IMG/VR virus record: IMGVR_UViG_2802429253_000004 | DNA: 48,941 nt | From: a virus | Lineage: Duplodnaviria > Heunggongvirae > Uroviricota > Caudoviricetes | Strand: one strand, 5' to 3' | Shown: one piece after another, positions 1-48,941 of the stretch | Numbering within the stretch: position 1 is the first letter of the stretch | Layout of the letters: every line of letters starts with the position of its first letter | Position numbers and translations under genes: made by a program | The notes under the pieces: generated by a model | What the model saw: only the letters and a program-made list of their open reading frames with translations | Databases searched by the model: none | Told to the model about the DNA's origin: nothing

Positions 1-121
1 AAACCGAGGTTTTTGCGAATTGCCTCTGTATCGTCTGAACGATATTTTTTCCCGCTTTTAGCAACAATCGCGGTTTAGAAAGTATGCAATATGGTTATGC
101 GAGAGTGTCAACTTTTGACCA
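1..121. repeat. 121-bp terminal direct repeat, identical to 48821..48941 (overlap of a circular molecule)
   Basis: The first 121 nt match the last 121 nt of the window exactly. Confidence 0.9.
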
Positions 122-638
122 GAATTTAGAATTACAACTGGAGGCGCTCAGGCGTTCAGGATGTGACCGGATTTTTGAAGATAAAATATCCGGTGCTAAA
201 TCAAAACGACCTGGACTTGATAAGCTACTGAAGGTGTTACGGCCGGGCGATACGGTTATTGTCTGGAAGCTGGACCGAATGGGGCGTTCTCTGATTCATC
301 TTGTTGATTTACTTAACCATTTTTTATCAAACGACATTGAGTTTATTTCGATTACGGAAGGGATAAAAATTAGCACTTCAATTGGCCGCTTTGCCTACAC
401 GATGCTGAGTGCAGTCGCAGAGATGGAGCGGGAAAATATGATTGAAAGAACGCGTGCAGGATTGGCGGTGGCAAGGGCTAACGGCAGGATAGGAGGACGC
501 CGCTCAAAACTGGCACCAGAGCAATGGGAACAGATCGGAAGGCTTATTGCGAATGGTGTTTCACGTAAGCGGATAGCGATTATCTTCGATGTTACCTTAT
601 CCACGCTTTACCGCAGGTTTCCGGCTGGGAATCATTGA
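84..638 (+). CDS. Serine recombinase, DNA invertase of the Gin/Cin/Hin/Pin family
   Basis: 184 aa; N-terminal YARVSTxDQ catalytic motif, resolvase fold and C-terminal HTH, closely resembling Mu Gin; lies next to an invertible tail-fiber segment. Confidence 0.9.
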   Translation: MQYGYARVSTFDQNLELQLEALRRSGCDRIFEDKISGAKSKRPGLDKLLKVLRPGDTVIVWKLDRMGRSLIHLVDLLNHFLSNDIEFISITEGIKISTSIGRFAYTMLSAVAEMERENMIERTRAGLAVARANGRIGGRRSKLAPEQWEQIGRLIANGVSRKRIAIIFDVTLSTLYRRFPAGNH

Positions 639-768
639 CTGGAGTTAGGCCAGTAGTATGATGCTCGCAAAACGAGATCCAATTTAGATCCTTTTACTGG
701 TGGATTATCGTTCGATTAGTGAGAGACTTCGTGCATGACCGAAAGTGTTGTGGTAGAGTTCTCTTAAA

Positions 769-783
769 ACCACGTAACGTGGT
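769..783. promoter_or_regulatory. Operator-like palindrome ACCACGTAACGTGGT upstream of repA, same ACCAC-N5-GTGGT architecture as the cI/cro operators
   Basis: Perfect inverted half-sites ACCAC/GTGGT with 5-bp spacer; same pattern at 10711..10725, 11463..11477 and 11565..11579. Confidence 0.5.
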
Positions 784-821
784 TACGATTGTGGGTGTCT
801 GGTTGGAAAACGACCAGATAT

Positions 822-915
822 GGAAACAAAAAGCCCGCAGATAAATCTGCGGGCTTCTTGCGACATCCACGGAAAAACCAACAAACATATCCATGGGCGC
901 CTCGACAACTCCCAT
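822..915 (-). ncRNA. Candidate CopA-like antisense RNA of the repA leader (3' end defined by an intrinsic terminator on the minus strand)
   Basis: Minus-strand hairpin (about 832..856, stem AAGCCCGCAG/CTGCGGGCTT) followed by a U-run (about 821..830), just upstream of the repA start as in IncFII control regions; the 5' end is not defined. Confidence 0.35.
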
Positions 916-951
916 TATACGTTGGTTTTCCGTGGACGCAAGAGCGAACAT

Positions 952-1800: not shown

Positions 1801-1835
1801 CCCACCTGAATGATGAATCCGGTTTTACCGGAGGA

Positions 1836-2050
1836 TTATCCACGTCGCAATAAAATAGCTGTTCAAAAAACAAGCTAAATTAATTTTCTCTAAACCTGAA
1901 CACAGCGAAAATATCGTCTTTACAGGCATCAGCTAATCAAGTTATTCACAGTTTTGATATGTATATGCAAATGGTTTTTTATAATAGATGCACTAAACAA
2001 ATAAATGCAAAATCACTTTCTTTTATTAAAACTTTCTTTATTTAACTTAC
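1836..2050. other. Candidate replication origin (oriR-like): DnaA-box-like TTATCCACG at 1836..1844 followed by an AT-rich tract
   Basis: Lies directly downstream of repA as in IncFII replicons; 8/9 match to the DnaA box consensus; AT-rich stretch at about 1920..2040. Confidence 0.4.
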
Positions 2051-2443
2051 GCAGGCTTTGCCTGTGAATATGTTCGCCCTTGCAGCGAGCTAAAGCTCGC
2101 GCCGGTTCGAGTCGCTACGCTCAAATATACCTCCTCCGGCACTTGCCGGAGGCATGGAGCAGCCTGATCATCCTTTTCGAAACGGCGCGTTTCGAACTAT
2201 ACAAAATCAATTTATATAAGGCCGAAATAAGGCCTACGGCCGGGCTTTGCAGGAGGAAGGGGCGAGCCTTATCAATAAACGTCGATAAATACGCACACAG
2301 TAGCCATCAGAACGCGATAAAACGTAAGAAACATCATTTCCTATTAGACATAGAAAACTTGTCTTATACGCAATGTAGTAAATTTCTATTGCCACATAGG
2401 AAAAGATTTCCTACCATCGTAGATATAATAAATGGAGATGGTT

Positions 2444-2731
2444 ATGGATAAAGATACTGTTTTAAAAATGTTGAATCCGGCTTGTTTAAAAAAAGCGGAT
2501 GAATGGGAATCTCCTACATGTGGAGAAGTTCGGGCAGTCATTGGCCTGACCGGAATGAGCGGCTCGCAGTTGGCCAAAAAACTAGGCTTAAAAGATAGTC
2601 GCAATGTTCGCAACTGGCAGATGTTAAAGGAGTCCACATCCAGATCCAGCATTCCGTATGCAGCCTGGGCGCTGCTGTGTTACTTCGCTGGGTTAGGGTT
2701 AATCTTCATTGATAACAAAACAGATGTTTGA
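2444..2731 (+). CDS. Small HTH DNA-binding protein, function unknown
   Basis: HTH-like segment LTGMSGSQLAKKLGL; GGAG ribosome-binding site 6 nt before the ATG at 2444. Confidence 0.5.
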   Translation: MDKDTVLKMLNPACLKKADEWESPTCGEVRAVIGLTGMSGSQLAKKLGLKDSRNVRNWQMLKESTSRSSIPYAAWALLCYFAGLGLIFIDNKTDV

Positions 2732-2754
2732 AACATGCAAATATGAGGTTTGTT

Positions 2755-3018
2755 ATGGAACTTGTACGCAAAACACGCAAAGAGTTCTTGGACCTGTATC
2801 GCATGGGAGCTTTCACTTGTGTTGTGGCTACCCAGGACGAAGTGACAAAAAGCTGGCGGCTTTTTGCTCTCAATAAAAAAGGGATTGCCGTTTTCATTGA
2901 AAAAGCCCGTGGTGGTATCCGCGAATGGGCGGGATTGAATTATGTGGCTGATTTTTGCGCAGCTATGGGGATTCGTCGCTGGGAAGTCCATATGCCAGGA
3001 GTAAAGTCACAAAAATAG
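2755..3018 (+). CDS. Hypothetical protein
   Basis: ORF directly downstream of the HTH gene; GAGG ribosome-binding site before the ATG at 2755; no recognisable motif. Confidence 0.4.
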   Translation: MELVRKTRKEFLDLYRMGAFTCVVATQDEVTKSWRLFALNKKGIAVFIEKARGGIREWAGLNYVADFCAAMGIRRWEVHMPGVKSQK

Positions 3019-3262
3019 GGCTTTCGCGTCGAAAATGAGGCGAAACTGAAAACGAGATTTCATTAACAAATAAGCAACATAAAAAACGGTGGAAAACGCC
3101 CAGGAAAACATGATCTTTTGAGCGGATTTTTTAGATCCGACAATGAACGGTGATCCGGTGGTGCCGATAACGTCCATTATGTTAAATAGCCCCGTTTTTC
3201 TTGAAATTATAACTCACAGGTTATATAGTTAGTGATATAAACTACAGGTTATAGGATTGAGC

Positions 3263-3610
3263 ATGTGGACGGTACTTTTTAGCCAGCGATTTGACGACTG
3301 GCTAAATGAGCAAGAAGACGCTCTTCAGGAAAAGGTTTTGGCTGATTTGAAAAAGCTACAGGTTTACGGACCTGAGTTACCCAGGCCATATGCCGATACC
3401 GTAAAAGGTTCTCGGTACAAAAATATGAAAGAGCTTCGCGTTCAGTTTTCTGGCCGTCCGATAAGAGCCTTTTATGCGTTCGATCCGATTCGCCGGGCCA
3501 TCGTTCTTTGTGCAGGAGACAAAAGTAACGATAAGCGGTTTTATGAAAAACTGGTGCGTATAGCTGAGGATGAGTTTGCAGCACATCTGAACACACTGGA
3601 GAGCAAGTAA
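3263..3610 (+). CDS. higB: Type II toxin, RelE/ParE superfamily, HigB-like (Gp49-like killer protein)
   Basis: About 115 aa; toxin-first order with an overlapping downstream HTH antitoxin (stop and start share 3608..3612). Confidence 0.65.
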   Translation: MWTVLFSQRFDDWLNEQEDALQEKVLADLKKLQVYGPELPRPYADTVKGSRYKNMKELRVQFSGRPIRAFYAFDPIRRAIVLCAGDKSNDKRFYEKLVRIAEDEFAAHLNTLESK

Positions 3611-3909
3611 TGAGAACATTAGATGAGGCGATTGCCAGCCGTTCACCGGAAAGCCAGGCGCGAATTAAAGAAATGGCAGATGAGATGATTCTTGAGGTCG
3701 GCTTGCAGATGATGCGTGAAGAACTCCAGTTATCACAAAAACAGGTTGCTGAGGCGATGGGTATAAGCCAGCCAGCAGTAACAAAGCTGGAGCAGCGCGG
3801 AAATGATTTAAAGCTGGCGACATTAAAGCGTTACGTTGAAGCTATGGGAGGCAAATTAAGCCTGGATGTTGAGCTTCCCACAGGAAAACGAATAGCGTTT
3901 AACATCTGA
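3610..3909 (+). CDS. higA: Type II antitoxin, XRE-family HTH, HigA-like
   Basis: 99 aa; HTH motif LSQKQVAEAMGISQPAVTKLE; translationally coupled to the upstream toxin. Confidence 0.65.
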   Translation: MRTLDEAIASRSPESQARIKEMADEMILEVGLQMMREELQLSQKQVAEAMGISQPAVTKLEQRGNDLKLATLKRYVEAMGGKLSLDVELPTGKRIAFNI

Positions 3910-3924
3910 TCAGAACGAATGATA

Positions 3925-3952
3925 AGCCCCTGTTGCAAAGGGGCTTTTTTGT
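3925..3952 (+). terminator. Rho-independent terminator after the higBA-like pair
   Basis: Stem AGCCCCT/AGGGGCT with 7-nt loop, then TTTTTT. Confidence 0.7.
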
Positions 3953-3955
3953 GCT

Positions 3956-4072
3956 TATAGAATTATATAATTATAGATTTATATAAAAAGTGCTTTACAG
4001 GTGGGAAAAAATTTCCTATGGTTATACCCGAAACCGAGCGATACCCGCCCTGGTTAAACCGGAGATAACCCG
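3956..4072 (+). promoter_or_regulatory. Promoter/leader cassette, copy A (AT-rich iterons, -35 TTTACA, 17-bp spacer, -10 TATGGT, conserved ~45-nt leader with GGAG ribosome-binding site)
   Basis: Near-identical to 13991..14118 and 20858..20974; each copy ends at the ATG of a different gene. Confidence 0.6.
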
Positions 4073-4453
4073 ATGAGCATGATTAAAATCCGCAAAAACG
4101 CTTTCCTTAAAATTCAAACTATCCTGGCTGGTTCTGTTGGCGTGATTTGCCGTTCTTCCTCAAGCCGCATCGATGACTGCTACGATGATGAGTATCGTGT
4201 GTCCTCATGCGATGAGGCTTTAACCTGGCTGAAGGAGAATCAGGAACGTGCCCAGGTATATCTGGAAACAGAGAACGGCAATCAGATGCTGCGTATTAGC
4301 GGTCGTTATGGATTTGAAACTACATTCATGGCCTATTTTAATCAGGCTTACTTTGACAAGGAGTTGGCCTGGTACACTGATCGCATGAGCAAAAGCGAGC
4401 CAGCCCCGATTACACCGCCGAACAATAAACCATTTTTATTCCTCGTTAAGTAA
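4073..4453 (+). CDS. Hypothetical protein driven by cassette copy A
   Basis: 126-aa ORF whose ATG directly follows the conserved leader. Confidence 0.5.
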   Translation: MSMIKIRKNAFLKIQTILAGSVGVICRSSSSRIDDCYDDEYRVSSCDEALTWLKENQERAQVYLETENGNQMLRISGRYGFETTFMAYFNQAYFDKELAWYTDRMSKSEPAPITPPNNKPFLFLVK

Positions 4454-4516
4454 ACACAATGTGCAAAGTGTCATTTTGACACTTTGCGAGTGTTAATATT
4501 GTGCGAGGAGGGTGCT

Positions 4517-4789
4517 ATGACGGGTTATGAATTGAAATTATGGCGTCGTGGGATGAACTGGACGCAGGAGCGAGCCGCCGAAGAATTTGGGATATCGTTG
4601 GCTACATATAAGCGATATGAGAAGGGGGAGCCGCCGAGGGTCATTGAGATGGCCATTCGCGTTCTGTCGTTTGACGATATGGTGAAGGATCTTTCACACC
4701 TTGATAAAGACGCGATTCTGTTAAGGCTGCAAACCCTTGTATGGGAAAAGGTTAAAGTGTCGTCAGAATTGGAACAAGGGATCAAATGA
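4517..4789 (+). CDS. Small HTH-domain protein (XRE-like)
   Basis: Motif WTQERAAEEFGISLATYKRYEKGE; strong ribosome-binding site GAGGAGGG before the ATG at 4517. Confidence 0.5.
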   Translation: MTGYELKLWRRGMNWTQERAAEEFGISLATYKRYEKGEPPRVIEMAIRVLSFDDMVKDLSHLDKDAILLRLQTLVWEKVKVSSELEQGIK

Positions 4790-6070: not shown

Positions 6071-6096
6071 AGCGCCCAAATCGGGCGCTTTGTTTT
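6071..6096. terminator. Bidirectional intrinsic terminator between convergent genes
   Basis: Stem AGCGCCC/GGGCGCT with a T-rich tail on the plus strand and a U-rich tail on the minus strand. Confidence 0.65.
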
Positions 6097-7237
6097 ATGG
6101 TTTTGCACCTGCGGCCAGTTTATCCGCAGATATTTTTATCAGTTCCTGTAGTGTCCTGGCTGGCAGGTTTGCATCCAGAACGCTGAGTATGCTGTTGTGA
6201 TCAGCCTGGTCGACTACTTTGCCTGTCGGTGGTAGTAGCTTGAGCTGAGGATTCAGGTTTTCGTCAAAGCTGATAAGTGCTCTGGCGTTTCTGAGCAGAT
6301 CAAGAAGTAAGGCTGATATCACATCATCTTTAGTCATTGTTGGTAGATTTAGTGCCGCTTTAGTTTTCTCCGTCGCCTTGTCAAACTCTTTGATTAGTGT
6401 CTTGCGGTAGTTTGGTTCTGTTAATAGCCGATGATGTTCTGTTGCCGTTCGGATAATCTTTGTTTCCTGATACAGTCGGTTGTATAGCATTCGCTCGTAT
6501 TCTGCCTTTAACACGCTGCTGATAGCGTTAAAGGCTTCAATGTAGGCCAGCTTGATATCCTTCACGCCTGGACCGTCGATACTTTCCATGAGCAAGGTAA
6601 ATCCGTCTTTTGTCATGCGATAGATTGTTATTTCGCGGTCGCTTCCTTCCAGCGGTCGTTGCTCTTTAAAGAAATGACGCGCCGCAGCCGTGCGAGGAAT
6701 GCGTAATGCATCGATGGCCATTACGATGGAATTGTTTGTGGTGCTGAATGCTTGGGCAACATCGGCTGAGGTTGTGAGTGGCTCGTTGTTGCACACCTTA
6801 ATGTAATACATCGGTTTGGCATTGAGTGTATCGACAACCTCACGAGCATTGTTTGGCGAGACGGTTACGGTCGCGGCCGTTTGCGCGTTCTGGTTGAAGT
6901 AGCAGTCTTCCAGCCGTTCGAATACATCCCACGCCTGATCGGTTTCGAGCATTTTAGCGTGACGTGCAGCCCCGCGTTCGGTCCAGAGGATGAGTTTTCT
7001 AACGTTATTCGCGATGGTTTGAAAATCTCTTAAAGAGATTTTCAAACTTTGGAGATCTGTACCTTTTACAACTATGAAATGTTTTCCTTCTGTAAACCGG
7101 GACTTATTACGGTGGTGATTTCTGTGAAGACATTCGACGCTACAGCCATATAGTTTGGCAAGCAGCTCCGTGGTGATAACGGGGAGCTGGTTATGCAGGA
7201 TAGGCTGTAGGGTGTTAACGGTCGGAAGCGTTTTCAT
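6095..7237 (-). CDS. Antirepressor-like regulator with ORF6N-type N-terminal domain and Rha domain
   Basis: 380 aa; N-terminal segment ending LWTERGAARHAKMLETDQAWDVFERL, central Rha-like segment ITIYRMTKDGFTLLMESIDGPGVKDIKLAYIEAFNAI. Confidence 0.7.
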   Translation of the reverse strand: MKTLPTVNTLQPILHNQLPVITTELLAKLYGCSVECLHRNHHRNKSRFTEGKHFIVVKGTDLQSLKISLRDFQTIANNVRKLILWTERGAARHAKMLETDQAWDVFERLEDCYFNQNAQTAATVTVSPNNAREVVDTLNAKPMYYIKVCNNEPLTTSADVAQAFSTTNNSIVMAIDALRIPRTAAARHFFKEQRPLEGSDREITIYRMTKDGFTLLMESIDGPGVKDIKLAYIEAFNAISSVLKAEYERMLYNRLYQETKIIRTATEHHRLLTEPNYRKTLIKEFDKATEKTKAALNLPTMTKDDVISALLLDLLRNARALISFDENLNPQLKLLPPTGKVVDQADHNSILSVLDANLPARTLQELIKISADKLAAGAKP

Positions 7238-7425: not shown

Positions 7426-7587
7426 TGTGATGATTCCCTTAAAGGTTAAGGATACTCACCACCGTCAGGTTCCAATCATTGGGTGGTGAGACGTGCAGGG
7501 TTGGAACTACCGGACACAATGACGAACCGGCGAGTCTTACGACTCCCCCGCACGCCCCACCATAATTTGGGTGTAGCAGTGCTTTAC

Positions 7588-7612
7588 GCATAAAAAAACC
7601 GCTAACGCGGTA
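7588..7612 (-). terminator. Intrinsic terminator on the minus strand within the leader of the antirepressor operon (3' end of a candidate small RNA or attenuator)
   Basis: Minus-strand hairpin ACCGCG..GCGGT followed by TTTTTTT; mutually exclusive pairing segments upstream (TCTACGG / CCGTAGA / CTACGG at 7626..7663). Confidence 0.4.
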
Positions 7613-7875
7613 TGCGCCATTGTGTCTACGGGGTTCCAATCCCGACCGTAGATTTTGCTACGGCTCGGAAAGTGTCCACCAATGGCGCATTCATGTCAAT
7701 ACGGCGGGATTTTAACAGAGGCAACCACATAGCGTGGGTTTGAATGCAGGGCTTTTAATTTTCTTGATATGCTAAGAACGGGAATGTATAGTTCCTGTAA
7801 GGAACAAATCAGTCCTAAATTGTGATGTTTTGTTAAAGTTGGGAACAAGAAAAAAATTTATTATGGGGATAAAAA

Positions 7876-8415: not shown

Positions 8416-8834
8416 TGAGTGAAGAAACAAAAAAACCGCCCTATTGAGGACGGTTCTTTCGTGCTGATCGGATTCGCAGTCCTTTCAGCATAACGTCGTT
8501 GTATAAATACAACCACGCAAGCACAAACAGCGTTCTTATTCTTACCTAACTGAATAAAATTGTCCAAATAAATTTGGTTTATTAGAGCACAAAAGCAAGT
8601 GATATTTTGTAATATGCGGTTAAGTCAATGAAAAACAATATTTTTTTATCCCTTCATTATGAAGGGGCGGCGGCGTAACATTACGCGGGGCCTTTTCGCC
8701 GATTCGCACCCGGGCACCGACTTTCAGGAAAGGATTATCCAACCGCCGTACCACGCAGGCACAAACAGCGTGCTTGCTCTCGCGTCATTTTCGTCGGTGG
8801 AGATGCCGTGGAACGGCCTGCGAGGGCCAATACA

Positions 8835-8954
8835 ATGAGGAAATACGTATGTATTTTGATCGTTGTTACTGGAGCTTTGTTTACGCCACATGGGGAGGGT
8901 TGGAAGATTACTGATAACGCTCTGAATGTGACGATAAACATTAGCAGCAAGTAG
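8835..8954 (+). CDS. Candidate 39-aa hydrophobic peptide (MRKYVCILIVVTGALFTPHGEGWKITDNALNVTINISSK)
   Basis: GAGGG ribosome-binding site 8 nt upstream; strong intrinsic terminator immediately downstream; no homolog recognised. Confidence 0.3.
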   Translation: MRKYVCILIVVTGALFTPHGEGWKITDNALNVTINISSK

Positions 8955-8959
8955 CGATT

Positions 8960-8982
8960 AGGCCCCTTCGGGGGCCTTTTTT
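8960..8982 (+). terminator. Strong rho-independent terminator
   Basis: Stem AGGCCCC/GGGGCCT with loop TTCG, then TTTTTT. Confidence 0.8.
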
Positions 8983-9204: not shown

Positions 9205-9453
9205 TTACTTCTGGTTGTATTGAGCCTTGAGTAACTCAAAAGATTTTGTCAGCACTTCTTTCAATGACATATCCATTGAGCTGGCGAATGTTTTGTACTC
9301 ACGTTTAAATTCAGGGTCGACGTTAAACGCCATTTGTGCTCCACCTGATTTGGTTCTGGTCGGCGTTTCAGTCGGGTCGAAAACCTGCGGTTGTTCGATT
9401 GATGGCGGTACGCCTTTGCTGTTCTTCTTTGGTGGTTTTGATGGTGCGGCCAT
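9205..9453 (-). CDS. Small partition protein, ribbon-helix-helix ParG-like centromere-binding protein
   Basis: 82 aa directly downstream of parA; unstructured basic N-terminus then an RHH-like segment MAFNVDPEFKREYKTFASSMDMSLKEVL. Confidence 0.6.
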   Translation of the reverse strand: MAAPSKPPKKNSKGVPPSIEQPQVFDPTETPTRTKSGGAQMAFNVDPEFKREYKTFASSMDMSLKEVLTKSFELLKAQYNQK

Positions 9454-9465
9454 GTGTATCCCCTC

Positions 9466-9497
9466 TTATATAAATCTATAAAACTATAATTATATAT
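9466..9497. repeat. AT-rich 15-bp iteron pair (TATAGAWTTATATAA family, inverted orientation) downstream of the partition operon
   Basis: TATATAAATCTATA and AAACTATAATTATATA; same motif family as at 3956, 10172, 10246, 13991, 15218, 19728 and 20858. Confidence 0.7.
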
Positions 9498-10165
9498 TAC
9501 GCGGCAGTAGTCAGAGCCTCAAGCTGGTTGATAATCCCCTGAATAACGTCGTCTGCCTTTTTGCGTGGCGCAACGTATGAACACTCAATGAGGCTTAAGC
9601 CCTTATCCTGAGCTTTGCTCAGAGCTGGCTTGTGGGGAATGTACTTATCGACAACAAAGTATGGCGTATTAGCCAGGTACTCTTGGGCTTCGATGTAGTC
9701 AGCTTCGTTTTCAGCCGCGCCGGAAAACACCATGCAAATTTTCTTGATTGGTACACCCTTTTTAACGATGCCGTGAGCTGTGTTAACGGTGGTTTCCAGG
9801 TCATCGGTAGAGAATCTGGTTGGCAAAATAACCATATCCAGAAATTCAGAGAGCTTCGGTACTGATTCAGATGCGTAGGCACCGCCATCGACGATAACCA
9901 GGTCGTATACTTCTGATTCGATGATTTTCTGGACTTGTGATGGTGTGCCGCACGGCTGCGCCGCGATTGCTGGTTCGATATTGTTGGCCATTCTGCGTTG
10001 TACCCAACGCGTTACCGTTCCGTTAAGCACATCCATATCGATCAGGCATACATTCCAGCCAGCCTTTGCATAAGCAACTGCTAAAGCACGAGCAATGGTT
10101 GATTTGGTTACGCCGCCTTTTCCGTTGAAAATACCTACAGATATAGTCATTTGTCGAGACTCCAT
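9497..10165 (-). CDS. parA: Partition ATPase ParA, small type Ib (ParF/Soj-like)
   Basis: 222 aa; deviant Walker A GKGGVTKST near the N-terminus. Confidence 0.85.
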   Translation of the reverse strand: MESRQMTISVGIFNGKGGVTKSTIARALAVAYAKAGWNVCLIDMDVLNGTVTRWVQRRMANNIEPAIAAQPCGTPSQVQKIIESEVYDLVIVDGGAYASESVPKLSEFLDMVILPTRFSTDDLETTVNTAHGIVKKGVPIKKICMVFSGAAENEADYIEAQEYLANTPYFVVDKYIPHKPALSKAQDKGLSLIECSYVAPRKKADDVIQGIINQLEALTTAA

Positions 10166-13990: not shown

Positions 13991-14118
13991 GAATATCGGA
14001 AATCTATAAATATATAATTATAGATTTATATAAAAAGTGCTTTACAGGTGGGAAAAAATTTCCTAAGGTTATACCCGAAACCGAGCGATACCCGCCCTGG
14101 TTAAACCGGAGAAATCTG
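13991..14118 (+). promoter_or_regulatory. Promoter/leader cassette, copy B
   Basis: Near-identical to 3956..4072 and 20858..20974; directly downstream of the Q-like gene. Confidence 0.6.
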
Positions 14119-15186
14119 ATGAATAAACAAGTAATTATTTCTGACTGGATCAACAACCCTAACAGCCTGTTGAGCACTGATACTGGCTATAGATTACGTC
14201 ATGTTAATGGCCGTATGGTCAAAAGCGATGAGCACGAAACCTTTTTCGTTGTTGAAGACGATGGACGTCTTTATGAGGATGGTCACTCTTATGAATCCCA
14301 AACAGGTTGTATCCCTGCGGAGTTGGTAGACGTAACAGAAAAGCTGCGCAAAGCATGGCTTGAACAGCAGCAGCGCGGAGATGATTACGTAAATACCTAT
14401 CAGGAACGCCAGAACGCGCGTCTTGCCCGATATATTGCTCGTGCAGAAAAAGCTAGAAAAGAAGGTGCGGTGGCGCATAAGCGAGCGCATGAACTGTTGG
14501 ATGTGATCCCGTTAGGCCAGCCGATTTTAGTTGACCATTATAGCGCGAAAGGCCATCGCCGCCGTTTGTCTAAAGCTGATGCGTTATTCAGAAAATCGTT
14601 TGTTGAGTGTGAAAGCAGAGCATCGTACTACGAAAGCAAAGCCGCAGGTGTCGGCCGTAATGGAGTTTCGTCTGATGATCCTGATGCGCTATTTAAGTTG
14701 CTTCGTAAGCTGCAAGGCTGCATGAAGTCACACATCAAAATGAAGGCCGCAAATAAGGCTATTCGCAAATACAAAAAAGACCAATTACAGCAGCTTTCCG
14801 CATTAATTGACCTTGAGTTTACTGAAAGCGAAGCCAAAGAGTTACTCGCCGGAGATTTCTGTGGGCACATTGGCTTTCCTTCATACTCACTGAGTAACAA
14901 TAACGCCGAAATCAAACGCCTACAGAGCCGTATTAAAGAGCTTGAATCGGTCAAGTCTGTAACAGGATCACAGCGCGAAGAATACGACGGCTTTTCTATG
15001 GAGGTAGATCCAGAGGATAACCGCATCCTGTTTTATTTCCCTGGCAAACCAGAGGCAAACATTCGTTCGCTGCTTAAATCACGCGCCTTTAAGTGGAGTC
15101 CAACCCGTAATGCATGGGTTCGCAAGATTACTCCAAACGCCCTGGCTGATGCCCGATATCTGAAAGAATCGCTATTGAAAGCCTGA
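14119..15186 (+). CDS. Hypothetical 355-aa protein, first gene after cassette copy B
   Basis: Long ORF with basic, coiled-coil-like central region; function not recognised. Confidence 0.6.
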   Translation: MNKQVIISDWINNPNSLLSTDTGYRLRHVNGRMVKSDEHETFFVVEDDGRLYEDGHSYESQTGCIPAELVDVTEKLRKAWLEQQQRGDDYVNTYQERQNARLARYIARAEKARKEGAVAHKRAHELLDVIPLGQPILVDHYSAKGHRRRLSKADALFRKSFVECESRASYYESKAAGVGRNGVSSDDPDALFKLLRKLQGCMKSHIKMKAANKAIRKYKKDQLQQLSALIDLEFTESEAKELLAGDFCGHIGFPSYSLSNNNAEIKRLQSRIKELESVKSVTGSQREEYDGFSMEVDPEDNRILFYFPGKPEANIRSLLKSRAFKWSPTRNAWVRKITPNALADARYLKESLLKA

Positions 15187-19890: not shown

Positions 19891-19966
19891 GGCCCCTTAG
19901 CTCAGTGGTTAGAGCAGGCGACTCATAATCGCACGGTCACTGGTTCAAGTCCGGTAGGGGCCACCA
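19891..19966 (+). tRNA. tRNA with CAU anticodon (tRNA-Met, or tRNA-Ile2 if lysidine-modified)
   Basis: 76-nt cloverleaf: acceptor GGCCCCT/AGGGGCC, D-arm GCTC-AGTGGTTA-GAGC, anticodon loop CTCATAA, T-arm ACTGG-TTCAAGT-CCGGT, encoded CCA. Confidence 0.85.
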
Positions 19967-20274: not shown

Positions 20275-20862
20275 ATGGAGGCAATTGTATTGTTTAATCT
20301 GATTTATGCAGATCCCCCCTGGGAATACAAAGACAAGTGTAAGGATGGGAATCGTGGCGCTGGTTTTAAGTATCCAACGATGAAAGCTGAGGAGATTGCT
20401 CGTATTCCTGTCTGGCAGCTTGCTAATCCTGAATCGTGTTTGTTGGCTATGTGGTGGGTTCCGACTCAGCCAGAAGAAGCGTTGCTGGTGGTGAAAGCAT
20501 GGGGATTCAGGCTTATGACCATGAAGGGCTTCACATGGAACAAATGTGGTAGCCGACAGCCAGACAAGCTGGTGATGGGGATGGGACATATGACTCGTGC
20601 AAACAGTGAAGATTGCTTGTTTGCGGTAAAAGGCAAATTACCGACACGTCTTGATGCGGGGATCATTCAGTCGTTTACATCGCCTCGTCTGGAGCATTCT
20701 CGGAAGCCTGATGTGGTCCGTGACAAACTGGTAAAGCTGTTAGGCGATGTTCCTCGTATTGAGCTGTTTGCTCGCGGTGATTTACCTGCTGGCTGGCATG
20801 GCTGGGGCAACCAGTGCAACGGAGGTATCCAGTTGCATGATGCTCTCTGGCAAGTGTCATAG
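20275..20862 (+). CDS. MT-A70-family N6-adenine DNA methyltransferase
   Basis: DPPW catalytic motif (IYADPPWEY) near the N-terminus; 195 aa; no adjacent restriction endonuclease. Confidence 0.8.
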   Translation: MEAIVLFNLIYADPPWEYKDKCKDGNRGAGFKYPTMKAEEIARIPVWQLANPESCLLAMWWVPTQPEEALLVVKAWGFRLMTMKGFTWNKCGSRQPDKLVMGMGHMTRANSEDCLFAVKGKLPTRLDAGIIQSFTSPRLEHSRKPDVVRDKLVKLLGDVPRIELFARGDLPAGWHGWGNQCNGGIQLHDALWQVS

Positions 20863-20974
20863 AATTATATAATTATAGATTTATATAAAAAGTGCTTTAC
20901 AGGTGGGAAAAATTTTCCTAAGGTTATACCCGAAACCGAGCGATACCCGCCCTGGTTAAACCGGAGATAACCCG
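20858..20974 (+). promoter_or_regulatory. Promoter/leader cassette, copy C
   Basis: Near-identical to copies A and B; ends at the ATG at 20975. Confidence 0.6.
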
Positions 20975-21196
20975 ATGAAAGAACAAGACCGTAAAGTAAT
21001 GCGTATTTCCTTCAAACGTGCGACTGAGCAGCAACGCAAAGAGTTCCTGGCTGATGATGTAGCGGCCGTTTATGACCTCATGAAAGAGGTTGTGGAATCA
21101 GGGAACTACACGGCGGCAAAGATGCTTAAACTGCAATTCTTGCTGGGCGACCTGAAATACAAATCCGAAGTTGTCGCCGGACGACGCGAGCATTAA
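20975..21196 (+). CDS. Hypothetical 73-aa protein driven by cassette copy C
   Basis: ORF directly after the conserved leader; terminator downstream. Confidence 0.45.
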   Translation: MKEQDRKVMRISFKRATEQQRKEFLADDVAAVYDLMKEVVESGNYTAAKMLKLQFLLGDLKYKSEVVAGRREH

Positions 21197-22112: not shown

Positions 22113-22826
22113 ATGATGCATTTAAAAAATATTAGTGCGCCGCTTATTGATCCCCGTGGCAAACATCCAGATGTGCTACCGCTTTTTACTGAAGACGGAA
22201 GAGATTGGTATGAGGAACAGAAGAAATTTCAGCCTCATACTTTAAAGATTGCGTATGACAATAACGGCATTATCCGCAGTGTATCGAAGGATGTATCGTT
22301 GCTTTGCCCGGATGGGATGAGTGTTATTGAGTTACCTGATACTGATGAGTATCGAAAAGTAGATAACACAGGTGATTGGCTCGTCAAAGATGTTCAAATT
22401 GTGAAGCGTGAAGGTACAGAGCACCGAGAAAACTCACTGATATCTATTGGTGCCGAGGCTGTTCCGTTTAAGTTTGAATTATCCCAACTGGTAACAATGC
22501 GTATCAGTGACGAATGGGGAGAAGTTCAAGCCCGTGCTCAGTATGCAAATGGCGAAAACCAGTATCTGATTCACTATCAGGCGGCTGATGGCCGTGCTAC
22601 TACAGAGTGGTTCTGTGAGTCGATGCTGATTGCGATGGAGGATAAACGTCATCCTGGCTGTCCTGTTTTTGCTTGTATTGATCTGCCAGAAGGCGCGGTA
22701 CTTGAAGACGACAAAGAAGAATGGTCGCCTGATGGCGAACTTGTCATTACCGGAATCGTGGATGGTAAGCCGAGATACTCTCGCATTGAGGTAAATAACG
22801 GCCACATCTGTTTGATACCAGAGTAA
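22113..22826 (+). CDS. Tail fiber assembly (Tfa)-like N-terminal domain fused to an uncharacterised C-terminal domain
   Basis: N-terminal ~110 aa align with the Tfa proteins at 46836..47369 and 47398..47925 (MMHLKNI..WYEEQ..FQP.TLK..YD.NG.I); C-terminal ~125 aa unrelated to them. Confidence 0.6.
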   Translation: MMHLKNISAPLIDPRGKHPDVLPLFTEDGRDWYEEQKKFQPHTLKIAYDNNGIIRSVSKDVSLLCPDGMSVIELPDTDEYRKVDNTGDWLVKDVQIVKREGTEHRENSLISIGAEAVPFKFELSQLVTMRISDEWGEVQARAQYANGENQYLIHYQAADGRATTEWFCESMLIAMEDKRHPGCPVFACIDLPEGAVLEDDKEEWSPDGELVITGIVDGKPRYSRIEVNNGHICLIPE

Positions 22827-44763: not shown

Positions 44764-46833
44764 GTGAGTAAATTATTATTTACGATGACTGACGCCGGGC
44801 GTCAGGAGCTGGTTAATGCCAACAAAACAGGAACAAATAAAGTTGAGATTGTTTCTGTTGGTTTAGGTAGTAGATATTATGTCACGTCAACTTCACAAAC
44901 AAATATAACAAACGAAATAAAACGACTTACCACAATAGGTGGCAAAGTTGTTTCCCCTGATACAATTCATGTAACAGCGAAGGATGATAGTAAAGATGAG
45001 TATGTTGTCCATACAATAGGATTGTATACGAATAAGGGTACGTTGTTTGCTGTATACTCACAAGAACAAGCAATAATAAATAAAGCATCATCTACTATCG
45101 CTTTAATATCAAGTGATATAGCAATTAAAACTCTTGATACTAAAAATATTACATTTGGTGATATTGAGTTTATTAATCCTCCCGCGACCGAAACTGTTGT
45201 TGGGGTGGCAAGATTTGCTAATGAACAAGAAATTGATGCAGGTACAGATGATTCCCTTGCTGTTTCAGCAAAGCGGCTTAAGCAAGCCATTGTGAAACAT
45301 GAGCAATCACGTAATCATCCTGATGCAACTTTAACCTCAAAAGGCTTTGTTCAACTTAGCAGCGCCACCAATAGCACGTCTGAAACGCTTGCTGCGACGC
45401 CTAAGGCTGTTAAGGCAGCATATGACCTGGCTAACGCCAAATACACCGCACAGGACGCTACCACAGCGCGAAAAGGGATTGTTCAGCTCAGTAGTGCCAC
45501 CAACAGCACGTCTGAAACGCTGGCAGCAACACCAAAGGCTGTTAAGGCAGCGTATGATCTTGCGGCCGGAAAGGCTCCGTCCAATCACACGCATTCGTGG
45601 GAGCAGATAACAAATGTGCCTGTAGCTTCACTGACTGTAAGGGGAATAACTCAGCTCAGTAGTGCCACCAACAGCACGTCTGAAACACTGGCCGCGACAT
45701 CGAAAGCTGTAAAGGTGGTAATGGATGAAACGAACAAGAAAGCGCCCCTGAACAGTCCGGCGCTGACCGGAACACCAACAACACCAACTGCGCCAAAAGG
45801 TACTAACAATACTCAGATCGCAAGCACGGCTTATGTTATGGCTGCGATCGCTGCCCTCGTGGACTCATCGCCTGACGCACTGAATACGCTGAACGAGCTG
45901 GCTGCGGCGTTGGGCAACGACCCGAATTTTGCGACCACCATGACTAACGCGCTTGCGGGTAAGCAACCGAAAGATGCCACCCTGACGGCGCTGGCCGGGC
46001 TTGCTACTGCGGCAGACAGGTTTCCGTATTTTACGGGGAATGATGTCGCCAGCCTGGCAACTCTGACAAAAGTCGGGCGGGATATTCTTGCGAAATCGAC
46101 CGTTGCCGCCGTTATCGAATACCTCGGTTTACGAGAACTCGGCACAAGCGGGGAAAAAATACCGTTACTCAGTACGGCGAATACCTGGACCAATCGACAA
46201 ACATTCAGTGGTGGCCTTTCTGGGGAACTGTCCGGCAATGCCGCTACTGCAACAAAGCTGAAAACAGCACGAAAAATTGCTGGAGTTGGTTTTGATGGTT
46301 CTAGCGATATTTCAATTAGTGCCAAAAATGTCAATGCATTTGCACTCCGACAAACAGGTAATACTGTTAATGGTGATACATCCGTTGGATGGAATTGGGA
46401 TAGTGGTGCATATAACGCCCTAATTGGTGGTGCATCTGCATTAATTCTTCACTTTAATATAAATGCTGGTAGCTGTCCTGCCGTACAATTCCGTGTGAAT
46501 TATAAAAATGGTGGCATTTCCTACAGGTCGGCTCGTGATGGTTATGGGTTTGAATTAGGTTGGTCAGATTTCTATACCACGACACGAAAACCTTCAGCGG
46601 GAGATGTTGGTGCATATACTCAGGCAGAATGTAACTCAAGGTTTATTACAGGTATTCGCCTTGGCGGTCTGTCATCTGTTCAGACATGGAATGGTCCCGG
46701 CTGGTCTGACAGGTCAGGTTACGTTGTTACGGGTTCAGTTAACGGAAACCGTGATGAATTAATTGATACAACACAGGCAAGGCCAATTCAGTATTGCATT
46801 AATGGGACGTGGTATAACGCGGGGAGTATTTAA
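44764..46833 (+). CDS. Tail fiber protein (constant N-terminal part plus variable C-terminal part, current orientation)
   Basis: 689 aa; internal fiber repeats; a gix-like crossover site lies in-frame at 46112..46137; C-terminus ends ..YCINGTWYNAGSI. Confidence 0.85.
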   Translation: MSKLLFTMTDAGRQELVNANKTGTNKVEIVSVGLGSRYYVTSTSQTNITNEIKRLTTIGGKVVSPDTIHVTAKDDSKDEYVVHTIGLYTNKGTLFAVYSQEQAIINKASSTIALISSDIAIKTLDTKNITFGDIEFINPPATETVVGVARFANEQEIDAGTDDSLAVSAKRLKQAIVKHEQSRNHPDATLTSKGFVQLSSATNSTSETLAATPKAVKAAYDLANAKYTAQDATTARKGIVQLSSATNSTSETLAATPKAVKAAYDLAAGKAPSNHTHSWEQITNVPVASLTVRGITQLSSATNSTSETLAATSKAVKVVMDETNKKAPLNSPALTGTPTTPTAPKGTNNTQIASTAYVMAAIAALVDSSPDALNTLNELAAALGNDPNFATTMTNALAGKQPKDATLTALAGLATAADRFPYFTGNDVASLATLTKVGRDILAKSTVAAVIEYLGLRELGTSGEKIPLLSTANTWTNRQTFSGGLSGELSGNAATATKLKTARKIAGVGFDGSSDISISAKNVNAFALRQTGNTVNGDTSVGWNWDSGAYNALIGGASALILHFNINAGSCPAVQFRVNYKNGGISYRSARDGYGFELGWSDFYTTTRKPSAGDVGAYTQAECNSRFITGIRLGGLSSVQTWNGPGWSDRSGYVVTGSVNGNRDELIDTTQARPIQYCINGTWYNAGSI
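46112..46137. promoter_or_regulatory. gix/cix-like recombination site inside the tail fiber gene (TTATCGAATACCTCGGTTTACGAGAA)
   Basis: Matches the Mu gix consensus TTATCCAAAACCTCGGTTTACAGGAA at most positions; inverted partner at 48807..48833. Confidence 0.75.
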
Positions 46834-46835
46834 CG

Positions 46836-47369
46836 ATGATGCACTTAAAAAACATTACTGCTGGCAACCCTAAAACAAAAGAGCAATACCAGCTAACGAA
46901 ACAATTTAACATCAAATGGCTTTATACAGAGGATGGAAAAAACTGGTATGAGGAACAAAATAACTTTCAGCCTGATACGTTGAAAATGGTCTATGACCAC
47001 AACGGCGTTATTATTTGTATTGAAAAGGATGTTTCAGCAATTAATCCAGAAGGCGCAAGCGTCGTTGAATTACCTGATATTACAGCAAATCGCCGGGCTG
47101 ATATTTCGGGTAAATGGATGTTCAAAGATGGCGTAGTGATAAAGCGAACTTACACCGAGGAAGAGCAGAGGCAACAAGCGGAAAATGAAAAGCAAAGCCT
47201 GTTGCAACTTGTCAGGGATAAAACCCAGCTATGGGACTCACAGCTACGGCTGGGCATCATTTCCGACGAGAATAAACAAAAATTAACCGAGTGGATGCTC
47301 TACGCGCAGAAAGTCGAATCCACAGACACCTCCAGCCTGCCAGTAACGTTTCCCGAACAACCAGAATGA
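46836..47369 (+). CDS. Tail fiber assembly protein (Tfa/U)
   Basis: 177 aa; Tfa-type N-terminal domain directly after the fiber gene. Confidence 0.8.
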   Translation: MMHLKNITAGNPKTKEQYQLTKQFNIKWLYTEDGKNWYEEQNNFQPDTLKMVYDHNGVIICIEKDVSAINPEGASVVELPDITANRRADISGKWMFKDGVVIKRTYTEEEQRQQAENEKQSLLQLVRDKTQLWDSQLRLGIISDENKQKLTEWMLYAQKVESTDTSSLPVTFPEQPE

Positions 47370-47397
47370 GAGAAGGCCCGCTATCGGGCCTTAATTT

Positions 47398-47925
47398 TTA
47401 CTCTGGTTTTTGTGGCCATTCTGGCTTTGCCGTATCCACGCGGCTGACCAGAACGCTGTAGCGTTCCCATGACTCCAGTCGTGTACGCTCCTCATCTGTT
47501 GCCATATTCAATCTGACAGCGCGTTCCAGTGGCTGGATAACTGATTCAGCTTCGGAAAGTAACGCGGACTTTTGTGATTCAGCCTGTTGTTGCTGTTCGT
47601 CTTCCGTATAAATCCGTTTAACCACAGCTCCATCCTTAAACATCCACTTCCTTGAATCATCGGCACGACGATTAGCTGTTATATCGGGAACCTCAACGAC
47701 GCTAAAACCTTCAGGATTAAGCGTGGAGGCATCTTTAGTGATGGCGACAATAATATTATTTTCGTCGTAAACAATCTTTATTGTGTCTTCCTGAAAATTA
47801 CTTACTTCCTCATACCAGTTTTTATCATCTTCGGACCATAACCATATAACATCAAAATTCTTTGTTAGCTGATATTGTTCTTTTGTTTTTGGATTTCCTG
47901 ATCTGATATTTTTTAAATGCTGCAT
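47398..47925 (-). CDS. Alternative tail fiber assembly protein (Tfa/U')
   Basis: 175 aa; paralog of 46836..47369 on the opposite strand inside the invertible segment. Confidence 0.8.
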
Positions 47926-47928
47926 AAT

Positions 47929-48816
47929 TTATACCTGTGCAACGTTATACCATGTACCATTGATGTATTTCTGAATTGGTCTGAAAATAGCTTCATCATC
48001 GCCATCAACTTCACCAATAATTCTTAATCCGGTAAGTGCGTGTCCGGCAATCTCATAACGCCCGCCGCGTGACATTAATTGAACAACTCGCGTACCAAGC
48101 CGGACATCTCCCACATAGCGAGAGTCAAAATTGCTGTAATTGGATGGGATAACCTGTCCGTGCACATTCAGACCGTGCCCCATAGTAACAAGACCAGTAT
48201 TAAGCGCGATATAGAATGGACGAAGACCATTCCAGCTACCGTACTGGTCACCACTGGCAGTAAATAACAGATACAAGCTGCCACCATCCTGTCGCAGAAT
48301 TGCACCATAATTTCCTGCAATCATCCTTAAAGCATTCTGTGATGTGGTTATCAGTTCCCCAGTCATGGTATCGCCAGCACGATTCCAGTCGCGACGCCAG
48401 CCAGGCGCGTAGGTGTCACCATGATTAATATAAGTAAATTGCGCTTTTGCTGTACCGTTCGTTGCAGTTGTTGGAGTAGTGACGCGAATAGTCATTGCGC
48501 TCTTGGTGCCCATCACTTCAACCACCGAGCCAGCAAGTTGAATATTCCCGCAACCTGTATCTGTAATAATTTTATTATTGGCATAAGACCATGAACCTTT
48601 GCACATCCAGTATGGGTGATTAAATGCCCCCTGAGACTCCAGCCACGCAATAAACTGTGCTGTCGTCCAGTTGCTGCTATCTCCTCCAATATTGATACTT
48701 CCGCTGGCCGCTTTCGCTGCACCAATATTTTTTGTGAAGGTATCTTTTCCTGGAATATCCGCACCGTTCTGGTTTTTCTGCAATGCGCCAGAAGCCTTGT
48801 TTATCGTTTCCTGCAA
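47929..48816 (-). CDS. Alternative tail-fiber variable C-terminal segment (Sv'), expressed only after inversion
   Basis: Open frame begins exactly at the gix core; an LGL-QETINK junction continues the fiber frame after inversion; C-terminus ..YINGTWYNVAQV parallels the plus-strand fiber. Confidence 0.8.
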   Translation of the reverse strand: MQETINKASGALQKNQNGADIPGKDTFTKNIGAAKAASGSINIGGDSSNWTTAQFIAWLESQGAFNHPYWMCKGSWSYANNKIITDTGCGNIQLAGSVVEVMGTKSAMTIRVTTPTTATNGTAKAQFTYINHGDTYAPGWRRDWNRAGDTMTGELITTSQNALRMIAGNYGAILRQDGGSLYLLFTASGDQYGSWNGLRPFYIALNTGLVTMGHGLNVHGQVIPSNYSNFDSRYVGDVRLGTRVVQLMSRGGRYEIAGHALTGLRIIGEVDGDDEAIFRPIQKYINGTWYNVAQV

Positions 48817-48833
48817 ACCGAGGTTTTTGCGAA
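48807..48833. promoter_or_regulatory. gix/cix-like recombination site (inverted partner of 46112..46137)
   Basis: Reverse complement TTCGCAAAAACCTCGGTTTGCAGGAAA shares the ACCTCGGTTT core and dyad arms with the site in the fiber gene. Confidence 0.75.
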
Positions 48834-48941
48834 TTGCCTCTGTATCGTCTGAACGATATTTTTTCCCGCTTTTAGCAACAATCGCGGTTTAGAAAGTATG
48901 CAATATGGTTATGCGAGAGTGTCAACTTTTGACCAGAATTT

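Follow-up and report, generated by a model that had tools for sequence, protein, structure and literature searches.

The circular 48.8-kb phage-plasmid studied here belongs to the E. coli group and pairs an IncFII-type RepA with a P2-like baseplate and tail. It very probably carries a functional invertible tail-fiber switch of the Gin/Cin type (Din family). Our window, the whole stretch of 48,941 nucleotides that was analyzed, gives directly the anatomy of this switch, the conservation of the reading frame and the intact catalytic residues of the invertase. An invertase with Resolvase and HTH_7 domains, inverted gix-like sites and two alternative cassettes of fiber tip plus chaperone are all intact, which supports the Gin/Cin-type assignment made in an earlier sequence-only reading. 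The switch is of the ordinary Mu/P1 style and adds nothing conceptually to the Gin/Cin paradigm; judged by alignment, its cassette modules are a mosaic of Mu and P1 parts. Public sequences point to inversion in vivo by the invertase, a conclusion that holds for near-identical relatives and not for the window molecule itself.

Anatomy of the invertible segment

The fiber gene, the segment and its two boundary sites comprise the following features:

44764..46123, + strand: Sc, the constant part of the tail-fiber gene, part of ORF 44764-46833 and ending at the crossover
46112-46137, + strand: left gix-like site, TTATCGAATACC TC GGTTTACGAGAA, crossover dinucleotide 46124-46125
46124..48821, no strand: invertible segment lying between the two sites, 2,698 bp from one central dinucleotide to the other
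46126..46833, + strand: Sv, the fiber C-terminus in the sequenced orientation, 235 aa from GL
46836..47369, + strand: U-type tail-fiber assembly protein paired with Sv, 177 aa (Pfam Caudo_TAP, E 5.5e-37)
47373..47392, + strand: G+C-rich hairpin, AAGGCCCG CTAT CGGGCCTT, then AATTTTT
47398..47925, - strand: alternative tail-fiber assembly protein, 175 aa (Pfam Caudo_TAP, E 6.5e-35), silent in the sequenced orientation
47929..48819, - strand: Sv', the alternative fiber C-terminus, 296 aa from GL (Pfam Gp34_trimer, E 4e-22)
48808-48833, + strand: right gix-like site, TTCCTGCAAACC GA GGTTTTTGCGAA, crossover dinucleotide 48820-48821

Both sites are 26 bp long with a 12-2-12 layout and the same central TC/GA, and 19 of their 26 positions agree when the two are compared as inverted repeats. 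The left site falls within the fiber ORF, where it is read as ...V I E Y L G L R E. When the whole window was scanned with the degenerate invertase-site pattern TTNNCNAAAACCTCGGTTTNCNNGAA and a tolerance of 3 mismatches, exactly these two sites came up, on opposite strands and each within 1 mismatch of the pattern; none of 100 dinucleotide-preserving shuffles matched it (0 expected by chance). Their earlier description as inverted and gix-like stands, with the start of the right site corrected from 48807 to 48808.

As had been proposed, the ORFs and Pfam domains place a fiber C-terminus and its assembly protein (Tfa) on the + strand and an alternative pair on the - strand. The two cassettes are promoterless and converge, and the silent one is free of frameshifts and stops. 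Lacking its own start, Sv' comes into frame with Sc only upon inversion. When we inverted the segment in silico at the central dinucleotide, the frame was kept at the LGL junction, as the sequence-only reading had it: the native junction, ...AAVIEYLGL followed by RELGTS, yields a continuous ORF for a 689-aa fiber, and the flipped junction, ...AAVIEYLGL followed by QETINKAS, one for a 750-aa fiber. The hairpin lies between the convergent chaperone genes and is terminator-like on the + strand.

Invertase, candidate enhancer and contig ends

Beyond the right site, the switch continues across the contig join:

84..638, + strand: serine DNA invertase, 184 aa (Pfam Resolvase N-terminal domain, E 1.8e-44; HTH_7, E 2.8e-13)
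48898..48941, + strand: second copy of the invertase gene start at the right end; the gene runs over the contig join and its complete copy is 84-638
102..173, + strand: candidate Fis-dependent recombinational enhancer, gene nt 19-90, placed by alignment
48815..48941, no strand: exact terminal overlap of 127 bp, equal to window 1-127, a sign of a circular contig

The invertase gene begins 65 bp beyond the right site. Its product is 54-55% identical to Gin and Cin, and S9, R7 and M114 are invariant in the alignment of the three. The best PDB matches are Gin structures (3UJ3, E 2e-61, and 4M6F), with resolvases far behind (E 2e-30), and members of its 90% cluster are named 'DNA invertase Pin-like' and 'e14 prophage recombinase' by their sources. 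Roles for S9 and M114 have been described in Gin, where changing M114 to V makes the enzyme Fis-independent (PMC3575834); M114 of the window invertase is wild type. The candidate enhancer aligns gap-free with the enhancer annotated within the 5' end of P1 cin (nt 19-90) and contains Fis-like G-N13-C cores at 105-119 (GTGTCAACTTTTGAC) and 154-168 (GTTCAGGATGTGACC), which correspond to gene nt 22-36 and 71-85; Mu gin has its cores at matching positions. Synonymous identity is only slightly raised over this region (7/14 same-residue codons, versus 26/82 in the rest of the gene). By extrapolation from these alignments, the enhancer would lie here and inversion would depend on Fis. A promoter had also been placed beside the right site; this is unconfirmed, and a consensus scan from the right site to the invertase ATG gave no match of at least 9/12.

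The right site reaches into the terminal overlap, as had been noticed, and straddles its start, so that its last 19 nt recur as window 1-19. The overlap had been given as 121 bp and the linearization point as arbitrary. The first figure falls short of the exact overlap, and the second claim is probably wrong. Base 1 of the window equals 48815, 5 nt ahead of the crossover dinucleotide, and the overlap begins where the native and flipped right junctions first become identical. An independent Logan contig also begins at this base, and two more assemblies begin exactly 21 nt further on. This placement of base 1, where the sequence first becomes common to the two orientations, suggests a mixture of orientations in the reads, and flipping is why short-read contigs of this phage-plasmid family break at the same base.

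Inversion in relatives and alternative explanations

The window belongs to the same element family as the roughly 48.5-kb phage-plasmid of E. coli ATCC 25922 and its relatives pO145_122715_2, p25POL-A, vB_YpM_39 and vB_YpM_44. Gene order is shared (baseplate J, tail protein I, fiber, Tfa, Tfa', Sv', invertase, RepA), the outer half-sites, that of the left site included, show no differences, and the invertases of the window and the ATCC 25922 plasmid differ at 3 of 184 residues (98% identical). The right site is identical in p25POL-A, the flipped copy of pL25922_3, pO145_122715_2 and vB_YpM_44. Unlike in the window, the segment of the ATCC 25922 family is 3,074 bp rather than 2,698 bp, and its tips are about 88-90% identical or unrelated.

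A single orientation throughout, the outcome envisaged beforehand as counting against a switch, is contradicted in these relatives and in contigs 99% identical to the window. The ATCC 25922 phage-plasmid occurs in both orientations among the public records of the strain, and also inside one dimer-like record. Between the reference record (L009) and p25POL-A (L010), and again between the two copies in pL25922_3 (L007 and L008), the flanks are 99.9% collinear and the 3,074-bp segment is inverted. An A/G polymorphism in the inner half-sites of these records changes sides with orientation, which places the crossover inside ACCTCGGTTT. The metagenome contig OBXC01000466.1 (99% identical to window 1-4016) and IMG/VR UViG_3300018477_000024 (99% identical to window 1-4619) have window 46833..46118 and 46768..46118, respectively, inverted and joined to base 1, which in both is exactly the predicted flipped right junction. 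Among the best 30 plasmid matches per search in a survey of the family, 12 records correspond to the native arrangement end to end and 11 to the flipped construct. A sister assembly contig, PTSM01000027.1, is in the native orientation only.

A related switch in a P2-like prophage of E. coli strains UTI89 and NU14 (and in Escherichia phage 520873 and similar) has a left site identical to that of the window, and its inversion is documented between near-identical strains: UTI89 and NU14 have 100% identical flanks around a 2,712-bp segment that is precisely inverted. Its cassette is 94-95% identical to that of the window over 45652-48132, and the active Sv is 99% identical to the UTI89 fiber tip at the protein level. 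In contrast to our element, it is a chromosomal prophage with a Gin-like invertase (55% identical to that of the window), the outer half of its right site is GGTTTTAAATAA rather than GGTTTTTGCGAA, and the flank beyond also differs.

These observations bear on whether the window element itself still inverts. It is improbable, in our judgment, that it is a locked fossil whose anatomy was inherited from Mu/P1-like ancestors and that now makes the 689-aa fiber only, owing to imperfect sites (19/26 symmetric), a lost enhancer or an unexpressed invertase. Such a state would fit the exclusively native orientation of both assemblies spanning the region (the window and L011), the failure to find the exact 750-aa flipped fiber in a collection of 15 billion proteins, the missing clear invertase promoter and the candidate status of the enhancer. 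However, the invertase has an uninterrupted ORF that retains every invariant catalytic residue, and the open silent cassette likewise speaks against decay. The same left- and right-site sequences recombine in UTI89/NU14 and the ATCC 25922 plasmids, the flipped state exists in elements 99% identical to the window, and in 4 independent assemblies the break falls either at the crossover vertex or precisely 21 nt beyond it.

Homologous recombination between phages, with cassettes replaced rather than inverted and the repeats being conserved ...LGL coding ends, would account for mosaic cassettes built of Mu and P1 modules, and for identity to vB_YpM_44 falling sharply exactly at the left site, from 99% before it to about 85% after. 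It is nevertheless very hard to reconcile with same-strain pairs in which an inverted segment of 99.7-99.9% identity sits between flanks of 99.9-100% identity, with breakpoints within a 10-nt shared core and an inner-half SNP exchanged reciprocally; together these are the signature of conservative site-specific inversion. Both orientations on one record and an intact invertase gene adjoining the segment in every family member examined argue further against replacement, and we give it very little credence. Least probable of all is a shufflon-like system with further cryptic sites and more than two fiber variants. It has a precedent in the multi-site Min switch of p15B, and a third gene with the N-terminal part of Caudo_TAP lies at 22113-22826, but the window holds just two sites at up to 3 mismatches and exactly two cassettes in the segment, and relatives show simple whole-segment inversion only.

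Module kinship, proposed mechanism and possible exchange between replicons

Among known systems, the Mu G segment is arranged in the same way (Sc / site / Sv-U / U'-Sv' / site, with the invertase gene immediately beyond the segment), and alignment of the sites, as the sequence-only reading had suggested, found the Mu site, TTATCCAAAACC TC GGTTTACAGGAA, near-identical and with the same TC core, whereas the P1 core is TT. The Mu sites are identical to each other, in contrast to the two in the window, and the window invertase is 54% identical to Gin and shorter (184 versus 193 aa). Mu is also a transposable phage, whereas our element is a plasmid-replicating phage with a P2-like baseplate. P1 (like P7) shares the phage-plasmid lifestyle, and Sv begins with LGL followed by RELGTSGEKIPLLSTANTW as in P1, yet the P1 C segment is 4.2 kb and Cin is 55% identical to our invertase. 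In both, the invertase gene lies on the side away from Sc, but P1 cin is transcribed towards the segment and the window gene away from it, as in Mu. Pin of e14, Hin of Salmonella and Min of p15B belong to the same enzyme class and use the same 26-bp site architecture; Hin switches a promoter rather than a coding end, and Min has six sites.

The fiber modules themselves are close to those of Mu and P1, the tips and chaperones being 88-96% identical to P1 modules. Sc, with three Phage_fiber_2 repeats (Pfam, E 5e-59), is 99% identical in amino acids to Sc of Yersinia phages vB_YpM_44 and vB_YpM_39. Over its last 165 aa, Sv shares 89% identity with Mu S' (G(-)) and 88% with P1 Sv', and its first 64 aa match the beginning of the P1 Sv/Sv' part at 80% identity. 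The assembly protein paired with Sv shares 98% identity with Mu U' and 96% with P1 U'. In the silent cassette, the N-terminus of Sv', QETINKASGALQ, resembles Mu S' QETVNQASGALQ, the flipped junction reads ...LGL then QET as in Mu, and the final 76 aa of Sv' share 88% identity with the P1 S tip. The assembly protein of this cassette shares 95% identity with P1 U and 93% with Mu U. The pairing is thus shuffled relative to Mu, with a Mu-like QET start, a P1 S-like tip and a Mu U-type chaperone in one cassette. The two assembly proteins are 93-98% identical to their own Mu/P1 type and only 57% to the other's.

We propose that a late fiber transcript would cover Sc and then whichever cassette adjoins it, presumably with expression of the Sc-proximal cassette only. 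In the sequenced orientation, this would give the 689-aa fiber with a Mu S'/P1 Sv'-like tip and a Mu U'-like chaperone. Dimers of the 184-aa invertase, with Ser9 as nucleophile, would bind both 26-bp sites, synapsis probably being aided by Fis bound to an enhancer at the 5' end of the invertase gene (first ~90 bp), and both sites would be cut at the central TC/GA, rotated by 180 degrees and religated. Sc would then stand in frame with Sv', giving a 750-aa fiber with a P1 S-like tip, followed by a P1 U/Mu U-like chaperone. With two alternative fibers made by inversion, a lysogen population would release particles of two receptor specificities, and the two tips, which come with matching assembly proteins, probably serve for attachment to different hosts. 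We infer this effect of the two orientations on host range from the 88-98% identity of tips and chaperones to Mu/P1 modules.

In the window and in hundreds of related ~48-kb phage-plasmids of Escherichia, Klebsiella and Yersinia, the fiber gene has two alternative 3' ends, and the family probably has a built-in bet-hedging host-range switch made of Mu and P1 modules. For phage biology and therapy, it matters that phages isolated on Yersinia pestis are among its members. In public records, the silent cassette is labeled 'hypothetical protein' or 'phage tail protein', those of the ATCC 25922 family annotate the switch only as 'recombinase family protein', 'hin' or 'pinE', and no invertible segment is marked in any record examined.

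The family's invertase is deep-branching, at about 55% identity to Gin and Cin, yet the sites it uses are interchangeable in core and inner halves with the sites of Mu, P1 and Gin-like P2-type prophages. It is conceivable, though we regard it as rather unlikely, that in cells with several such elements the invertases flip one another's segments in trans and shared sites serve to exchange entire tip-and-chaperone cassettes between replicons. Host-range switching and traffic in fiber modules would then be coupled across plasmid-borne and chromosomal phages. The drop in identity to vB_YpM_44 at the left site would be compatible with trans-flipping or cassette exchange, while demonstrating neither.

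The invertible segment and its boundaries

Two gix-like sites in inverted orientation bound a segment with a fiber C-terminus and its assembly chaperone on one strand and an alternative pair on the other, a gene order that the sequence-only reading had described and that we also see. The left site keeps the coordinates of that reading, while the start of the right site moves by one base, to 48808.

Features of the invertible segment and its junctions (window coordinates)
46112-46137, left site, TTATCGAATACC TC GGTTTACGAGAA
46126-46833, + strand, fiber C-terminus
46836-47369, + strand, Caudo_TAP chaperone
Between the two chaperone genes, G+C-rich hairpin
47398-47925, - strand, second chaperone
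47929-48819, - strand, second fiber C-terminus
48808-48833, right site, TTCCTGCAAACC GA GGTTTTTGCGAA
From 48898 (65 bp past the right site), continuing as 84-638, invertase gene
Native left junction, ...ACCTCGGTTTACGAGAA
Flipped left junction, ...ACCTCGGTTTGCAGGAA
Native right junction, CCTGCAAACCGAGG...
Flipped right junction, CTCGTAAACCGAGG...

Compared as inverted repeats, the sites match at 19/26 positions and have their core dinucleotide in common. When up to 3 mismatches are allowed, a degenerate invertase-site pattern matches the whole window at these two positions only, on opposite strands, and it matches none of 100 shuffled sequences. With no further site in the window at that threshold, a multi-site system like Min of p15B is ruled out. 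The reading frame survives in silico inversion at the core, as had been claimed from the LGL junction, giving continuous products of 689 aa (...EYLGL/RELGTS...) in the native state and 750 aa (...EYLGL/QETINKAS...) in the flipped state.

The minus-strand flank outside the right site (48834-48897), in frame with the alternative C-terminus Sv', reads ...AKSGKKYRSDDTEAIRKNLGL after a stop codon and resembles the end of the fiber constant part Sc, ...AKSTVAAVIEYLGL; it probably remains from an Sc end that had been duplicated. A 16-nt inverted repeat, I7 (GGGAAAAAATACCGTT, 15/16 matching, 46151-46166 and 48852-48867), has one arm just inside the left site and the other just beyond the right one, and is not in register with them. 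By rough estimate about 0.1-0.3 such pairs are expected by chance per 5 kb, and we regard I7 as a chance match or the remnant of an earlier rearrangement. Far from the fiber locus, a third ORF (22113-22826, + strand) matches the N-terminal part only of Caudo_TAP (E 1e-5), and has 78% DNA identity to the U chaperone gene over 93 nt (22181-22273 versus 46919-47011).

Both orientations in related elements and a flipped junction in near-identical contigs

Evidence that such segments flip comes in four independent lines. Both orientations are seen among ATCC 25922 plasmid records and between UTI89 and NU14, and further contigs have the flipped junction. In the ATCC 25922 plasmid the genes are ordered as in the window and the outer half-sites are identical to the window's; its invertase differs at 3/184 residues. 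Between the reference record NZ_CP009073 and p25POL-A, the flanks are 99.9% collinear and a 3,074-bp segment is oppositely oriented. A further record, pL25922_3 (NZ_CP032086.1), is a linear, dimer-like 94-kb version of the 48.5-kb plasmid with one copy per orientation (loci L007 and L008), which could be a genuine heterodimer or could arise when long reads of mixed orientation are assembled. In these ATCC 25922 records, an A/G difference in the inner half-sites swaps sides upon flipping. This places the exchange inside the shared ACCTCGGTTT, where cleavage at the central TC would put it.

The chromosomal P2-like prophages of UTI89 and NU14 have 100% identical flanks around a precisely inverted 2,712-bp segment. 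Their left site is identical to that of the window, and their cassette is 94% identical to window 45652-48132. Searched against 5,426 complete E. coli genomes, native and flipped constructs each gave long matches; the strain sets concerned are closely similar, but the members matched differ between the two constructs. In a family survey covering the best 30 plasmid rows per search, 12 records matched the native and 11 the flipped arrangement end to end.

For the window's own element, the predicted flipped fibers (750 aa and 743 aa) were absent by exact look-up from a protein collection in which the native forms (689 aa and 682 aa) were present, and a 34-nt flipped right junction had no exact match when one genome per species was scanned. 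A 26-nt flipped right junction, TTCTCGTAAACCGAGGTTTTTGCGAA, matches exactly in two metagenome contigs and one IMG/VR viral contig. Two of these, OBXC01000466.1 and UViG_3300018477_000024, align at 99% identity with window 1-4016 and 1-4619, respectively, and in them window 46833..46118 and 46768..46118, respectively, is inverted and abuts window base 1. The third has the whole flipped arrangement, at 87-90% identity inside the segment.

The point at which the window was linearized had been called arbitrary, and probably is not: the first base from which native and flipped right junctions read alike, at AAACCGAGG..., is window base 1 (equivalent to 48815). An independent Logan contig (SRR3988016) starts at this same base, and two other assemblies begin exactly 21 nt after it. 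A de Bruijn graph forks at that vertex only given reads with two different upstream contexts, and the shared breakpoints therefore suggest that both orientations were probably present in the sequenced cultures; the contig start looks like such an assembly-graph fork.

The invertase and known fiber switches

The invertase (184 aa, Resolvase and HTH_7 domains) has the Gin structures 3UJ3 and 4M6F as its best solved relatives (E 2e-61), with resolvases far behind at about E 1e-30, and shares 54-55% identity with Gin, with Cin and with the Gin-like enzyme encoded by the UTI89 prophage. Ser9 and Met114 are invariant in the alignment; Ser9 is the nucleophile of Gin, and M114V frees Gin from its requirement for Fis (PMC3575834). 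Its domains, its likeness to Gin and these invariant residues thus mark it as a complete, though divergent, Din-type invertase. An enhancer is annotated inside P1 cin, and the first 90 nt of the invertase gene align to it with no gaps; they contain two G-N13-C cores at gene nt 22-36 and 71-85, positioned as in gin. Within this candidate enhancer (nt 19-90), 7/14 same-residue codons are identical, versus 26/82 in the remainder of the gene, a slight rise in a small sample. A consensus scan for a promoter between the right site and the invertase ATG gave nothing at 9/12 or better, and the only nearby match lies inside the invertase gene. By eye, TTGCCT-17-TATTTT (8/12) abuts the right site; we do not count it as evidence.

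Sites taken from annotated records, gix of Mu (TTATCCAAAACC TC GGTTTACAGGAA) and cix of P1 (core TT), share the 12-2-12 layout of the window's sites. Over its last 165 aa the active tip shares 89% identity with Mu S' and 88% with P1 Sv', and it is paired with a chaperone 98% identical to Mu U'. The last 76 aa of the silent tip match P1 S at 88% identity; the chaperone of this cassette matches P1 U at 95% and Mu U at 93%. Relative to Mu, the N-terminal ends of the cassettes are crossed, with a P1-like RELG start and a Mu S'-like QET start, so that both are mosaic combinations of known modules. Analogy with Mu G(+)/G(-) and P1 C(+)/C(-) predicts that each state would recognize a different LPS-core receptor.

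In the Yersinia pestis phage vB_YpM_44 (locus L001), 99% identity runs through Sc and ends at 46132, in the inner half of the left site; the next alignment lies about 650 nt further on, at about 85%, and the right flank is at about 90%. From these alignments, whole cassettes appear to be exchanged, with the boundary at the recombination site.

The interpretation as a Gin-type tail-fiber switch is supported, and all testable defining features of a Din-invertase fiber switch are present; a need for Fis and the enhancer is predicted from sequence, and an effect on host range would follow by analogy. Mu G/Gin is closest in layout and core dinucleotide, P1 C/Cin in life-style, and the unannotated switches of ATCC 25922-type phage-plasmids and P2-like prophages in sequence. 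The switch belongs to a well-known kind and its mechanism is not new; what it offers is correct annotation, an explanation of the contig breaks and notice of a putative host-range switch in a widespread phage-plasmid family.

The phage-plasmid carrying the switch

The window's end repeats its start exactly over 127 bp, rather than the 121 bp first described, which makes it a circular contig with a length of 48,814 bp. Its NCBI counterpart is PTSB01000033.1 (assembly GCA_002965125.1), and the fiber and invertase proteins are listed there under 'unclassified Escherichia'.

Replication and immunity features of the element
820-1800, IncFII-type RepA
6095-7237, - strand, ORF6N/Phage_pRha (Rha) antirepressor-like gene, with C4 and isrK directly upstream
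7479-7567, - strand, P1-type C4 antisense RNA (Rfam)
7592-7664, - strand, isrK (Rfam)

A P2-like baseplate and tail module (Baseplate_J, Tail_P2_I) lies upstream of the fiber. C4, isrK and the antirepressor form a P1/P7 immI-type immunity module in a non-P1 backbone. RepA, the P2-like tail module and C4/antirepressor together thus identify a phage-plasmid. Its megablast relatives are plasmids of about 48-49 kb from E. coli (including that of reference strain ATCC 25922), E. albertii, E. fergusonii and Klebsiella, and 49-kb Yersinia pestis phages, among them vB_YpM_39 and vB_YpM_44. Two candidate members were set aside: vB_YpM_HQ103 (PMC11177050) is a different phage of 32 kb, and pSLy3 belongs to the SSU5 group (about 100 kb). 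Our literature search found no paper describing the tail-fiber switch of this ~48-kb family.

The element also carries a full-length match to the ryfA sRNA (8686-8982, + strand, 124 bits) and a tRNA-Met (CAT) gene (19891-19966, + strand). A Gp49/HTH pair resembling the HigB/HigA toxin-antitoxin (3263-3909, + strand), an MT-A70 DNA methyltransferase (20275-20862, + strand) and a ParA-like ATPase (9497-10165, - strand) belong to the plasmid part as accessory or maintenance genes. A dispersed 120-nt repeat occurs in copies 90-98% identical at 3957-4076, 14004-14123 and 20859-20978, with a partial inverted copy at 9453-9498. It opens with the AT-rich palindrome ATAGAATTATATAATTATAGATTTATATAA followed by TTTACA, and two of the three copies stop a few bases inside an ORF start (ATG at 4073 and 14119); the phage-plasmid may use this repeat as a promoter/operator cassette present in several copies.
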